A stretch of 10,180 nt of DNA from a virus (Duplodnaviria > Heunggongvirae > Uroviricota > Caudoviricetes). Below are positions 2,158-9,718 of the stretch, one piece after another. Location of the stretch: the IMG/VR virus record IMGVR_UViG_3300011952_000009. One strand, 5' to 3'. Both the position numbers and the translations under genes were made by a program. The notes under the pieces were generated by a model. The model was given only the letters and a program-made list of their open reading frames with translations, had not been told where the DNA came from and ran no database searches. Each line of letters begins with the position of its first letter. The stretch's first letter is position 1.

Positions 2158-2241
2158 AGCGACTCCTTGGTGATGTATACTCAGAACCGATCAGCGAATA
2201 TTGATCAGCTTCCATAGCGTCAGTGTCGTTGGTCTTTCCTC

Positions 2242-2265
2242 ATCACAAGTTTGGTCACTTGTGAT
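2242..2265. other. Perfect 9-bp inverted repeat ATCACAAGT / ACTTGTGAT with 6-nt spacer TTGGTC (RNA hairpin or protein-binding palindrome)
   Basis: Read directly from sequence; lies in the leader about 85 nt upstream of the 106-aa gene start on the minus strand; no U-tract follows on either strand. Confidence 0.45.
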
Positions 2266-2386
2266 AAATCCGAATGGTTTGGTCGCCGTTCGGGGTAACT
2301 GGCCCGCCTTGTGCGGGTCTTTTGCTATCTAAAGGGTGCCGGTTACGTTTCCGGCGTCGTCATGTTTCCATCACGACCGTACAGGG

Positions 2387-2461
2387 CTGGTCTTTCCTGT
2401 TTTGAGCTGGTCAGGCTCATGGTCAACGCTGGTCAGGCGTGGTACTTCCTCCGGTCTTTCC
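2387..2461. repeat. Periodic array of four GACC-core repeats at ~20-22 bp spacing (plus strand GGTCTTTCC, GGTCAGGC, GGTCAGGC, GGTCTTTCC)
   Basis: Repeat starts at 2389, 2409, 2431 and 2453. Minus-strand readings (GGAAAGACC, GCCTGACCAGC) match the motifs found at three gene starts elsewhere in the window. Confidence 0.5.
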
Positions 2462-2531
2462 CTGGTTTCACGCTGCGGGTTTGGCCTCTCCTGTTGGGGA
2501 CTCAGGCACAGCGATAAAACCTGGCTGTGTG

Positions 2532-2559
2532 AAAAAATGGCCCATCGTGCGGACTGGGC
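2532..2559 (-). terminator. Weak terminator-like hairpin (GCCCA, 10-nt loop, TGGGC) followed by a U6 tract on the minus strand
   Basis: Stem at 2540-2559 and T-run at 2532-2537 read on the minus strand. The large loop and an enclosing 7-bp stem (GCTGTGT/ACACAGC) make this uncertain. Confidence 0.25.
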
Positions 2560-2583
2560 AAAGACTAAACACAGCAAATTGAT

Positions 2584-2608
2584 GATGGGCGCCCGGAATC
2601 GAACCGGG
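2584..2608 (-). ncRNA. tRNA-like 3' half: T-arm CCCGG-TTCGATT-CCGGG plus a 7-nt acceptor-like strand; not a canonical tRNA
   Basis: Minus strand reads ACCCGGTTCGATTCCGGGCGCCCATCATC. A perfect 5-bp stem with 7-nt T-loop consensus is present, but no CCA in register and no D-arm, anticodon arm or clean 7-bp acceptor partner was found upstream. Confidence 0.3.
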
Positions 2609-3005
2609 TAACGGGCAGGGAGTTCCCGTTAAACACCTGTTCACCACAACCGGGAGCGCACTCCGCCATTTCAAAATTTAACGACAAAGCTCAAAGTTGA
2701 GTCGATGAAGTGCGCTCTCGTGTTGTAGCCAGGACTCTTCCCTGGTGGTCACACCGTATCGCCTTGATGGTGAATCAATCGCTCATACCTGGCTGTGGCT
2801 TGCACATTCCGGCTACCTGCTATGGAGACAACGCGTTAAGGCTCCGCTTCCATCCAGACCGCTTCGACACATGTGCCATATGCCGGTGAAGTCTTTCCCT
2901 CTGTCACCGTGTTGGCGCCGACGCGCAAAATTTGGTGCCGTCTTTCCGGCTGTCAGAACTTGTTTCTGAACAACTGCCGCTGGGTAAGCGTTGTTGATGA
3001 AAGTG

Positions 3006-3034
3006 ACTTTACAATTTGTATTTGTAATGGTCAA
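3006..3034 (-). promoter_or_regulatory. pL-like leftward promoter (-35 TTGACC, 17-bp spacer, -10 TAAAGT on minus strand) overlapping 19-bp palindromic operator TTACAATTTGTATTTGTAA (3009-3027)
   Basis: Hexamers read on the minus strand at plus 3029-3034 and 3006-3011. Operator half-sites TTACAA and TTGTAA are exact reverse complements with a 7-bp spacer. Confidence 0.5.
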
Positions 3035-3118
3035 TGTGTTTTTAAAAAATAATTTGTAGTGAGGGACAAAAAAATATTCACTGTGTAAAGGTGTTTTTGT
3101 GTTAGGGGAAAGTTGCAT

Positions 3119-3134
3119 GCCAGCAGCGGCTGGC
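3119..3134. other. GC-rich hairpin GCCAGC-AGCG-GCTGGC, 19 nt downstream of the repressor stop
   Basis: Perfect 6-bp stem with tetraloop; no adjacent U-tract, so a terminator role is uncertain. Confidence 0.35.
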
Positions 3135-3152
3135 CTGGAAATTTGAACTGAA

Positions 3153-3566
3153 CTATTTTGTCTGGTTTTTGGCTTCAAGTAGTTCTTTTAGCAGTAGATC
3201 GAAGTGCTCTCTTTTTTCTTTTAGCTCATTGATTAGTTTGTTTTTTTCGCTCTCAGGCAGTCCTCTGAATAGTTGCAGTAGAGCCTGTTCTTGCGGGGTT
3301 AGTTCTTGATTGTAATTACCGGGGTGTAGCGTGGATTCATCCAAATATTCTCCTTCATTCATGAAGAAAAAATGAACAGGGTATCCGGTCACTTTTGCTA
3401 GCTTGTCTAATTTATCTTTTCTTGGAGTTACCCCATTACACCATGCCTGAACTGATTGAGCTGTAACCCCAATATGGCGAGCTAACTCAGATTGAGACCA
3501 GCCTAAGTCTTTTAGAATCCGTTGTAGTCGGCTAGCAAAAGCCATGTTTTTCGTTTTTGTGTTCAT
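3153..3566 (-). CDS. Prophage repressor, DicA-like (N-terminal HTH, C-terminal dimerisation region, no S24 peptidase domain)
   Basis: HTH segment LGWSQSELARHIGVTAQSVQAWCNG. C-terminal LTPQEQALLQLFRGLPESEKNKLINELKEKREHFDLLLKELLEAK resembles the DicA C-terminus as recalled. Divergent from a Cro-like gene and flanked by palindromic operators. Track start 3581 is a TTG; ATG at 3566 (or 3545) is more likely. Confidence 0.85.
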   Translation of the reverse strand: MNTKTKNMAFASRLQRILKDLGWSQSELARHIGVTAQSVQAWCNGVTPRKDKLDKLAKVTGYPVHFFFMNEGEYLDESTLHPGNYNQELTPQEQALLQLFRGLPESEKNKLINELKEKREHFDLLLKELLEAKNQTK

Positions 3567-3619: not shown

Positions 3620-3659
3620 TTACAGTTANNNNNNNNNNCAAGACAAACTTCTTTCAGTA

Positions 3660-4389: not shown

Positions 4390-4428
4390 GCGCCTGACCA
4401 GCGTTTAACTTATACCGAGGAAAGACCG

Positions 4429-7035: not shown

Positions 7036-7073
7036 CCACGCATGACCAGCGTGAAATAACCGAGGAAAGACCA

Positions 7074-8658: not shown

Positions 8659-8687
8659 TTGACTTAGAAAAAGCCCGGGGCTATAGT
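8659..8687 (+). promoter_or_regulatory. Strong sigma70 promoter: -35 TTGACT (8659-8664), 17-bp spacer, -10 TATAGT (8682-8687)
   Basis: Read directly; both hexamers 5/6 to consensus with optimal spacing; predicted start site about 8694-8696. Confidence 0.55.
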
Positions 8688-8747
8688 TTCCGCGCAGCCG
8701 CAAAATCGGTTGCCGGGATTGGCGTCCCGGATATCTAAGTGACGCAT

Positions 8748-8768
8748 AGCCGCGTTAGCGGTTTTTTT
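8748..8768 (+). terminator. Rho-independent terminator: stem CCGC/GCGG (extendable to 6 bp), loop GTTA, then T7
   Basis: Stem 8750-8753 / 8758-8761, T-run 8762-8768; about 60-75 nt downstream of the predicted start site. A second hairpin CCGGGA-TTGGCG-TCCCGG lies at 8713-8730. Confidence 0.55.
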
Positions 8769-8929
8769 ATGTGTTAGGCACGGCCACATTCGCATTATGG
8801 TGGGCTGTGTGGGGGCTTCTGCGGAAGCGCCGGGTTCACTTAGCCGGTTACGCCAACCCTGCACAGTTCACCACCAGATGATTGGCGTCGCTGGTGGTGA
8901 TGAAAAAAACACTAAGTGAGGCCACTGCG

Positions 8930-9718
8930 ATGACAATCCAAATATCTGCGGAATCCCTTTCTCCGCTACATCATAACCAACTTCCCGTCATCACTACTGA
9001 ATTGCTTGCCAGTTTGTATGGCACGGAAGTAAATGGTATCCAGCAAAACTTCAAGCGCAACATCGCCAGATTTGTCGTAGGAAAGCATTTTTTTAAGCTG
9101 GAAGGTAATGAATTACGCGACTTCAAAAACAGACTGACAGATAGTCAGTCAGTTGCTAAACATACCCGATCCCTCATTCTCTGGACAGAACGCGGCGCAG
9201 CTCGCCATGCCAAAATGCTGGAAACAGAACAGGCCTGGGAAGTTTTCGAAAAGCTGGAAGATTGTTATTTTAGCCAGCGTCCAGAGAGGCGGAGTACAAC
9301 TACCGATGACCGTACTCCCTTACGTGATGCCGTTAATATGCTGGTCGGTAAGAAAGGCATGATGTATCCCGATGCCTACACCATGATTCATCAACGCTTC
9401 GCCGTCTCTCACATAGAACAACTGTCACAGACGCAAATGTTAGAGGCGATTGAATACATCCACTGCCTGCTACTCGATGAAAATCAGCCAACCATTCCAG
9501 ATTTTTCTTTTATCACCACTATCAAAAATGGAAAAGTGACCAGGATGCGCCATGTTGCCAAAGGCGAACATCTGATGACGTTTGACGCTTTCAAAGAGAT
9601 CGCTGAGCGGGCAGGGTATCTGGTGATCCACAGCGACAACCTGCGAAGTATGACACTGGATAAATTGATGGTAATGGGGAAAAAGTCTGCTGTATCTGTT
9701 GCTGATTCAGCATTTTGA
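8930..9718 (+). CDS. ORF6N-domain protein (phage antirepressor-like) with an unrecognised C-terminal domain
   Basis: N-terminal LASLYGTEVNGIQQNFKRNIARFVVGKHFFKLEGNELRDF...LILWTERGAARHAKMLETEQAWEVFEKLEDCYF fits the ORF6N pattern as recalled. GAGG 8 nt before ATG 8930; track start 8882 is a TTG and ATG 8900 is an alternative. Confidence 0.75.
   Translation: MTIQISAESLSPLHHNQLPVITTELLASLYGTEVNGIQQNFKRNIARFVVGKHFFKLEGNELRDFKNRLTDSQSVAKHTRSLILWTERGAARHAKMLETEQAWEVFEKLEDCYFSQRPERRSTTTDDRTPLRDAVNMLVGKKGMMYPDAYTMIHQRFAVSHIEQLSQTQMLEAIEYIHCLLLDENQPTIPDFSFITTIKNGKVTRMRHVAKGEHLMTFDAFKEIAERAGYLVIHSDNLRSMTLDKLMVMGKKSAVSVADSAF

Follow-up and report, generated by a model that had tools for sequence, protein, structure and literature searches.

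Why should a prophage carry the T-arm of a tRNA in a place where there is no tRNA? This question was raised by a stretch of 10,180 nucleotides from a tailed virus (Caudoviricetes; IMG/VR record IMGVR_UViG_3300011952_000009), here called the window, whose minus strand reads AAATGGCGGAGTGCGCTCCCGGTTGTGGTGAACAGGTGTTTAACGGGAACTCCCTGCCCGTTA-CCCGG-TTCGATT-CCGGG-CGCCCAT-CATCAATTTGCTG (as RNA, AAAUGGCGGAGUGCGCUCCCGGUUGUGGUGAACAGGUGUUUAACGGGAACUCCCUGCCCGUUA-CCCGG-UUCGAUU-CCGGG-CGCCCAU-CAUCAAUUUGCUGUGUUUAGUCUUUGCCCAGUCCGCACGAUGGGCCAUUUUUU). An earlier note, made from the sequence alone, had described a perfect 5-bp stem with a canonical 7-nt T-loop followed by CGCCCAT, and had offered three readings: a tRNA gene remnant, the 3' tRNA fragment of a former attachment site, or a tRNA-mimic processing signal within the early transcript. 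The comparisons reported here give good support to the view that the T-arm is the 3' hairpin of a tRNA-like fold occupying the 'tRNA slot' of a modular non-coding RNA unit. The make-up of the unit, which from 5' to 3' consists of a core, a closing helix, a slot for exchangeable cargo, and a tail resembling a small regulatory RNA (sRNA) with its terminator, is likewise well supported. Of the three readings the processing signal is, we infer, the most likely.

The hairpin was found as described, at 2608-2592 of the minus strand, with CGCCCAT at 2591-2585. It is identical across 448 E. coli genomes, and the sequence GGTTCGATTCC (2605-2595) is present in a single copy within the window. The statements that there is no CCA in register and no complete tRNA also held: ARAGORN run with default settings found no tRNA or tmRNA in the window, and the top score of the Rfam tRNA clan was 19.3 bits (tRNA-Sec, E=0.72), under the gathering score (29 for tRNA, 47 for tRNA-Sec). 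The earlier note had also suggested a search in relaxed mode. At a threshold of 80%, ARAGORN did call a 'tRNA-Val' at 2584-2661, but this call is at the level of noise and carries no weight because the program also fired at eight other places in the window and in 14% of shuffled 281-nt sequences. Calls made in mitochondrial mode were likewise no better than noise. Among 20,000 random windows of this size generated with a first-order Markov model, 621 (3.1%) contained a hairpin of five Watson-Crick pairs with a TTCRANY loop, therefore the T-arm by itself is only mildly unusual. It rises above chance because it is on the correct strand and lies inside a slot of about 70 nt which in related phages is occupied by a bona fide tRNA; by our own arithmetic the chance of such a placement is roughly 1e-4. 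T-arm hairpins are 15 times commoner in the RNA islands of this family than in the remainder of their contigs. The T-arm motif is ordinary, and what is new is the system around it.

The core of the unit (Table 1) is composed of the hairpin P1, helices P2 and P3, the hairpin P3b, the hairpin P5 with a GAAGAGU loop, and the invariant sequence GGUAGCCGGAAUGUGCAAG; a pseudoknot is formed by pairing of CACC in the P3b loop with a downstream GGUG. In alignment A4, which comprises 30 diverse cores and defines five helices plus the pseudoknot, 98.9% of the cells were paired and compensatory changes were detected in 12 of the 31 pairs (66 cells). These values were attained by none of 500 shuffles, and in slid controls 31-43% of the cells were paired. 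The core of the window forms every helix of A4 (P1, P2, P3, P3b, the pseudoknot and P5) and has GGUAGCCGGAAUGUGCAAG. A single-sequence fold of the 381-nt unit failed to give the comparative structure and was set aside.

More than 150 occurrences of RNA containing this core were identified (family loci L016-L134, L136-L189 and L191); they are in lambdoid, Uetakevirus-like and P1-like phages of Enterobacterales. The segment 2885-2714 of the window is conserved at 70-76% in many unrelated temperate phages, where it is nearly always unannotated; the carriers include SPN1S, phiV10-type phages, mEp390, Tyrion and Klebsiella phages. An invariant 19-mer of the core, GGTAGCCGGAATGTGCAAG, was present in at least 120 IMG/VR contigs. 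True members identified with a second core pattern came only from Enterobacterales genomes (Kosakonia, Enterobacter, Citrobacter, Klebsiella, Kluyvera, Erwinia), about half of the 54 raw matches to this pattern being chance hits in unrelated taxa. In P1/P7-like phage-plasmids the core lies between tRNA-Ile and upf69.6/ban (a small open reading frame, ORF, ahead of ban). In about 59 loci it follows a cI-type repressor gene of the same strand at a distance of approximately 180 nt, and in about 40 loci it is antisense between the terminase and portal genes. Whatever the location, the neighbour of the core is a tRNA or a tRNA-like RNA, the exception being the BUCT708 type, in which there is no cargo. 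In Uetakevirus-like prophages the module contains tRNA-Arg and is followed on the same strand by an ORF of 306 amino acids with the look of a coiled coil (L016, 2935-3855, minus strand); module and ORF occupy, in antisense orientation, the space between the terminase and portal genes, as is typical of a moron (accessory gene cassette).

Rfam 15 gave no match to the core or the cargo, either with the window searched in gathering and E-value modes or with ten related loci searched in gathering mode. STnc6030 of prophage BTP1 is not the same RNA: it is antisense to the tailspike gene. In the searchable literature no description was found of the core, of the cargo system, of a phage homologue of RprA or of a tRNA-like prophage RNA, and tRNA and RprA are both absent from a 2025 review of phage sRNAs. 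Absence from Rfam 15 and from the literature searched is not proof of novelty.

A long closing helix (P-close) immediately precedes the cargo: on either side of a variable insert, ACAAC with about 12 further nucleotides pairs with about 12 nucleotides and a GUUGU. Among 24 sequence variants, all distinct, 14 to 16 of the 16 positions were paired (also in alignment A3); in the lineage of this prophage (row L001, both strands identical to those of the window) the number was 15. The 3' strand is conserved in BUCT708, where the T-arm and CGCCCAT are absent. This helix bears on ATGGCG (2669-2664), which the earlier note had regarded as a possible acceptor strand pairing with CGCCCAT. That pairing is contradicted by the comparison: because ATGGCG abuts and overlaps the covarying 3' strand of P-close (2666-2647), it is not a free acceptor strand. 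Three other candidates in this region were dropped, namely a hammerhead-like GAUGAG in the closing helix, which is missing from many variants; a boxA/boxC-like UGCUCUUU...GUUGUGG, which does not occur in the window's own copy and falls in a paired strand; and a 32-codon ORF starting at the ATG of ATGGCG, as this ATG is not conserved in BUCT708.

The cargo of the window begins with GUGGUGAAC at a GUU|GUGG junction. When folded in isolation, it gave a tRNA-like three-way fold, with identical minimum-free-energy and centroid structures (-25.7 kcal/mol, z = -1.74). An acceptor-like stem of 6 bp, UGGUGA (2646-2641) with UCAUCA (2585-2580), is followed by an internal loop and a second stem of 4 bp, GGUG (2637-2634) with CGCC (2591-2588), and the T-arm stacks directly on the CGCC strand. 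Between these lies the hairpin AACGGG-AACUCCCUG-CCCGUU (2630-2610) with a loop of 9 nt. Among the elements of a cloverleaf (7-bp acceptor stem, D arm, 7-nt anticodon loop, T arm and 3' NCCA) the T arm alone has its canonical form: the acceptor-like helix is interrupted (6+4 bp), there is no D arm, the middle loop has 9 nt, and there is no CCA in register.

The cargos of the relatives show what this slot can hold. In 26 of 134 loci it contains a genuine tRNA-Arg(UCU) starting 3 nt into the GUU|GUGG junction (ARAGORN; the tRNAs were confirmed by Rfam). In 16 of the 134 loci, which belong to P1/P7-type phage-plasmids, the core is closely preceded by a tRNA with a CAU anticodon; ARAGORN labels this tRNA tRNA-Met, whereas P1-type records annotate it as tRNA-Ile. 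Further loci have tRNA-shaped scaffolds, GUGGUGA...UCACCAC with a variable middle, which start with GUGGUGAAC as the cargo of the window does. The D-like and T-like loops of the scaffolds are complementary (GCUGAU/AUCAGC), with one compensatory variant (GCUAAU/AUUAGC). Individual cargos resemble other RNAs. The L021 cargo folds into a full cloverleaf with a tRNA-Lys-like UUU anticodon arm, and that of L102 scored as a tRNA at 43.9 bits with a large insertion, its anticodon, read from the sequence, being GUA (tRNA-Tyr-like). The insert of the L078 scaffold (listed as L078, cargo after 4575, and L104) matches E. coli 16S rRNA with 85-87% identity over 40 nt, in a segment which we take to be helix 11, at about nt 240-290. 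Where this insert departs from 16S rRNA, for example by UA to AU on both strands, the helix seems to be retained.

The suggestion that the T-arm is what is left of a tRNA gene comes close. That the slot carries a true tRNA-Arg(UCU) in 26 loci and tRNA-shaped scaffolds in others speaks for it, but homology of the window cargo to a host tRNA or to another cargo was not found: there was no match to any E. coli tRNA at an E-value limit of 10, and no similarity to the other family cargos past the first 12 nt (GUUGUGGUGAAC).

In most members the cargo is followed by a hairpin, AUCACG...CGUGAU, a single-stranded stretch and the terminator. In the window the fold adjoins a tail which aligns with the E. 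coli stress sRNA RprA (Table 1), the alignment spanning an A/U-rich site, a conserved UGCUGUGUGUAGUCUUUGCCC stretch and the terminator. At a permissive threshold Rfam reported RprA at 2530-2640 with 37.4 bits (E=0.013), short of the gathering score of 70 that a full-length match would have to reach. In E. coli genomes the rprA gene itself was matched with 86% identity over 50 nt. The 15-mer GCUGUGUGUAGUCUU, with at most two mismatches, occurs after the core in 36 of 136 unique loci. This tail and its terminator had been overlooked in the earlier note; they start exactly at 2584, the lower bound of the interval that it described. The 3' half of rprA (L190, 341-448) is homologous to the tails of the family, and 29 of 32 nt, including an ACAAC motif, are shared by L069 (8076-8106), which raises the question of which came first, the tail of the host RNA or that of the phage. 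A long-range pairing of the 5' sequence GGGAAAGACU with the seed was also considered and dropped, since it reaches 10 bp in the BUCT708 type but is weaker in the window, and compensatory changes lend it no support.

On balance we think that the tRNA-like fold probably acts as processing or structural punctuation releasing the RprA-like sRNA, an opinion held with some reserve. The tRNA-processing machinery would recognize the tRNA or its mimic, RNase P acting at the 5' side of the fold, and RNase E would cut the A/U-rich CAAUUUG just 3' of it, in the counterpart of the cut-site region of RprA. The two events would release the core RNA, with its 3' end protected by the closing helix, and a terminator-ended RprA-like sRNA of about 47-50 nt, which could have the activity of processed RprA. 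Another possible use of the T-arm and the acceptor-like helices, stacked on each other, is as the duplex that helps RNase E to engage its substrate. At a minimum, the fold would be a structured boundary. There are precedents for such an arrangement: the 3'ETS-leuZ sRNA is excised from a tRNA precursor, the C4 RNA of P1/P7 is processed by RNase P, and the tRNA-like mascRNA of MALAT1 is a signal for 3'-end processing. For RprA itself, the last 47 nt are the processed form active in vivo (PMC9262595), which is produced by RNase E recognizing stem-loops in RprA (PMC6202311).

Several points weigh against a role in processing. Every step of the scheme is inferred, and the energy of the cargo fold is only modestly better than that of shuffled sequences, 14 of 200 of which fold equally well. 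With its interrupted acceptor-like helix and with neither an in-register NCCA nor a D arm, the cargo is not a good canonical substrate of RNase P. The seed has a G-to-U change relative to the consensus of the family and of RprA, and the terminator stem is weaker than that of RprA. Cargo and T-arm are monomorphic, a single nucleotide polymorphism (SNP) excepted, in 448 E. coli genomes, 11 IMG/VR contigs and 6 metagenome contigs; no divergent copies suitable for testing covariation of the T-stem were found in E. coli genomes, phage records, IMG/VR or metagenomes. The phages of the BUCT708 type, which are the closest divergent relatives, have the core, the closing helix, the seed and the terminator without any cargo, therefore the T-arm is dispensable for the module. 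Moreover, the hairpin AUCACG...CGUGAU that follows the cargo in most members is absent from the window, where AUCA alone is left, and this loss looks like a deletion, which fits decay. The BUCT708-type relatives represent the opposite state, with the post-cargo hairpin present and the cargo absent; both look like deletion derivatives of the full module.

The main rival holds that the fold is a functionless remnant, a decayed tRNA or tRNA-like cassette left by recombination or deletion, that the T-arm survives only because the lineage is young, and that only the tail sRNA and the core would matter. Such a history is rather unlikely in our judgement, yet it deserves serious weight: the cargo is restricted to a single, nearly clonal lineage of prophages and is unrelated to the other cargos after the dodecamer at its start, the post-cargo hairpin is lost, sister lineages do without a cargo, D arm and CCA are lacking, and the tRNA scores are under threshold. 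It is harder to reconcile with stems that are all intact, from the 6+4 bp of the acceptor-like helix through the hairpin of 6-7 bp to the perfect 5-bp T-stem with its canonical loop. The sole variant, A2630G, lies outside the T-arm and turns an A-U into a G-U pair, so that pairing is kept, and the cargo is placed exactly between two elements that need defined ends. A different function for the slot was also weighed. A tRNA-shaped cargo could bind and titrate a host or defence factor that reads tRNA elbows or T-arms (an anticodon nuclease, for instance, a defence sensor or an enzyme modifying tRNA), and phage tRNAs that counter tRNA-cleaving defences are known. Such a role is suggested by other cargos, that is, by the tRNA-Lys-like cloverleaf with its UUU loop, the tRNA-Tyr-like cargo with the large insertion, the scaffold with the insert matching 16S rRNA, and the loop-loop pairing that the scaffolds keep. 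For the cargo of the window it finds no support, as no match to its hairpin (loop AACUCCCUG) was obtained among E. coli RNAs within the sensitivity of the search, and no gene of a partner protein is consistently adjacent; we consider it improbable here.

The remaining explanations are much weaker. That the T-arm marks the former attachment site of a nested or ancestral element, for which only the seven acceptor-like bases after it speak, was not supported and on these data is rejected as extremely unlikely. The tRNA-Ser that serves as attachment site of the prophage itself differs from it in T-arm and acceptor (GGGGGTTCAAATCCCCC-TCTCTCC). The integrase lies next to that tRNA-Ser, about 4.9 kb from the hairpin, whose neighbours are the repressor and the early-left genes. 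There is neither a CCA nor a matching E. coli tRNA, and the flanks are conserved elements of the RNA module; as the surrounding RNA architecture accounts for the element, it is explained without integration. Coincidence, that is a hairpin unrelated to tRNA biology, would agree with its frequency in random windows of like composition and with the random firing of relaxed tRNA finders, but it is very improbable for a hairpin that has the correct strand, lies in the tRNA slot of an RNA family linked to tRNAs and stacks on acceptor-like helices. We give equally little credit to an independent sRNA of about 140 nt starting in the P-close loop near 2668, with a 5' hairpin GGAG-UGCG-CUCC and with ATGGCG free to pair with CGCCCAT. 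A GUUAAAU in the helix loop is conserved between the window and BUCT708, and a similar UUGUCGUUAAAUU is located upstream of the core in L016, but the promoter scan revealed no sigma-70-type site in the helix loop, covariation of the closing-helix strands implies that both are in one RNA, and the pairing of ATGGCG with CGCCCAT needs a bulge and is without comparative support.

Comparison with known systems places the unit next to several RNAs. With RprA (RF00034) the tail shares the A/U-rich cleavage-site region, UGCUGUGUGUAGUCUUUGCCC and the terminator, in an architecture of the Hfq-dependent, terminator-ended type. It differs by one mismatch in the seed, by the weaker terminator and by the lack of the 5' half of RprA including the rpoS-pairing region; moreover, its surroundings are those of a phage leader, where it follows a tRNA-like fold, whereas RprA is transcribed from an Rcs-controlled promoter. 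In E. coli 3'ETS-leuZ and in MALAT1 mascRNA a tRNA or tRNA-like fold adjoins a functional RNA whose end is made by tRNA-processing nucleases, and the slot of the relatives, with a real tRNA followed by an sRNA-like tail, is similar. Unlike these, the fold of the window is not a functional tRNA, having no D arm and no CCA, and its processing is presumed. The C4 antisense RNA of P1/P7 (RF01695) is another phage regulatory RNA in which tRNA-type recognition by RNase P serves maturation, but it has no sequence or structural similarity to 2580-2647 and belongs to an antirepressor immunity system. The tRNA cluster of T4 and other phage tRNA genes form transcription units mixing tRNAs and small stable RNAs with tRNA-like ends; the present family, in contrast, has a pseudoknotted core, a closing helix and exchangeable cargo, and is found in temperate enterobacterial phages. 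The large phage-associated RNAs GOLLD and ROOL and the bacterial YrlA, which resembles Y RNA, are likewise structured non-coding RNAs physically linked to tRNAs or having tRNA-like domains, but the Rfam searches gave no match to them, and size, sequence and architecture differ.

The position of the core after a cI-type repressor gene invites the idea of a put-like role in antitermination. Like put of HK022, a cis-acting antiterminator with copies (putL, putR) past both pL and pR, most lambdoid members form a structured RNA where the pL transcript begins, before terminators are reached. The put RNA is about 70 nt long and has two stem-loops and no pseudoknot (PMC9378689). Identity with put was rejected: the architecture differs, and no significant match (best alignment 16 nt) was obtained in an HK022 stretch not confirmed to contain putL. 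Also unlike put, the core is present in the window in a single copy, with none in the rightward operon, and many members lie outside early operons.

A wider interpretation can be put forward tentatively, as a possibility that we do not rate as the likelier outcome. The family may represent an undescribed, widespread RNA system in which a pseudoknotted core is combined with exchangeable tRNA-shaped 'display' cassettes and RprA-homologous tails to reprogram or decoy the RNA-binding machinery of the host, the tails of RprA and of the phages sharing ancestry. The cassettes would comprise true rare-codon tRNAs, look-alikes of tRNA-Lys and tRNA-Tyr, a copied helix of 16S rRNA and, in the window, the fold lacking a D arm. 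If the reading holds, about 1 kb of unannotated DNA in at least 448 complete E. coli genomes would be a structured RNA operon and not junk, and a covariation-supported RNA family absent from Rfam 15 and the searchable literature would be common to lambdoid, epsilon15-like and P1-like phages. The tRNA shape would then be a general-purpose cassette of phages for processing and possibly for mimicry. The host stress sRNA RprA would have phage-borne relatives of its active 3' part, and the prophage could feed into, or listen to, the RprA regulon.

Table 1. Features of the RNA unit and its surroundings in the window
Feature	Position	Strand	Basis or remark
T-arm, CCCGG-UUCGAUU-CCGGG	2592-2608	minus	5 bp and canonical 7-nt T-loop; sequence read
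Cargo, tRNA-like fold without D arm, about 68 nt	2580-2647	minus	fold of isolated 70-nt sequence
P-close 3' strand, GCGGAGUGCGCUCCCGGUUG	2647-2666	minus	overlaps GCG of ATGGCG (2669-2664)
P-close 5' strand, CAACACGAGAGCGCACUUCA	2706-2725	minus	pairs with 2666-2647
Pseudoknotted core RNA, about 166 nt	2722-2887	minus	alignment A4, RNAalifold consensus
RprA-like sRNA tail	2528-2584	minus	82% identity over 57 nt to E. coli rprA nt 54-110; tail with intrinsic terminator, 2584-2531
A/U-rich RNase E-type site of tail, CAAUUUG	within 2528-2584	minus	aligned to CGAAUUG of RprA
Seed, GCUGUGUUUAGUCUU	2575-2561	minus	part of tail
Terminator hairpin, GCCCA...UGGGC	2559-2540	minus	terminator scan; U6 run at 2537-2532
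5' part of leader, hairpins with GAAAGA loops	2888-3005	minus	sequence read
Remaining untranslated leader	2158-2527	minus	kept in BUCT708-type phages; GGAAAGAC at 2461-2454, 2397-2390 and 2239-2232
pL-like promoter, TTGACC-17-TAAAGT	3006-3034	minus	sigma-70-type promoter scan
Helix-turn-helix repressor gene	about 3546-3154	minus	flanks unannotated segment of about 1 kb
First early-left gene	2157-1837	leftward	other flank of unannotated segment

The window is derived from an E. coli prophage integrated at tRNA-Ser beside mtfA. Of 5426 complete E. coli genomes about 450-470 contain this prophage, many of these bearing the label O25b:H4-ST131. The T-arm region is a segment of about 1 kb (roughly 2158-3153) without an annotated gene. 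The predicted promoter upstream of it is overlapped by an operator-like inverted repeat, TTACAA-N7-TTGTAA, and a similar one, TTACAA-N7-TTGCAA, is located upstream of the repressor gene. Judging from these sequences, we read the promoter as a repressor-controlled pL; on this reading the T-arm would be part of the early leftward transcript, in agreement with the location assumed in the earlier note. At 3629-3638, in the operator/promoter region a short way upstream of the repressor gene, there are ten N (masked bases). The leader downstream of the tail (2158-2527) contains no annotated gene in 473 E. coli genomes.

In a search run in distant mode the whole leader was about 82% identical to that of phage BUCT708 and lay in the same gene context. 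This Stenotrophomonas phage (vB_SmeS_BUCT708, L013) shares about 72-82% nucleotide identity and the gene order with the window in the immunity and early-left region, a likeness to an E. coli prophage which is unexpected given the distance between the recorded hosts. A strong terminator-like hairpin on the plus strand, GGCCCGCCTTGTGCGGGTC followed by TTTT (2301-2319), lies inside the leftward leader and is conserved in BUCT708; it could halt transcription converging on the leader.

The octamer GGAAAGAC is present in the window in 8 copies versus 0.24 expected (between 1809 and 2947 on the minus strand, and at 4419-4426 and 7064-7071 on the plus strand). Three copies lie 2 nt ahead of an ATG and resemble ribosome-binding sites, while five are orphans in the untranslated leader, some of them in hairpin loops: one at 2947-2940 in the hairpin GCCG-GAAAGA-CGGC, another at 2898-2891 in the hairpin GGGAAAGACU. 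Because AAAGAC is complementary to GUCUUU of the RprA-like seed, the orphan copies could be targets of the seed; they could also be protein-binding sites.

An immI-type regulatory RNA cluster was identified on the plus strand at 8681-8878, all its members being above the Rfam gathering scores: c4-a1b1 (8681-8733), isrK (8694-8768) and C4 antisense RNA (8793-8878). The cluster is directly upstream of an ORF of 278 amino acids (8882-9718), which in a related genome is annotated as an ORF6N-domain protein.

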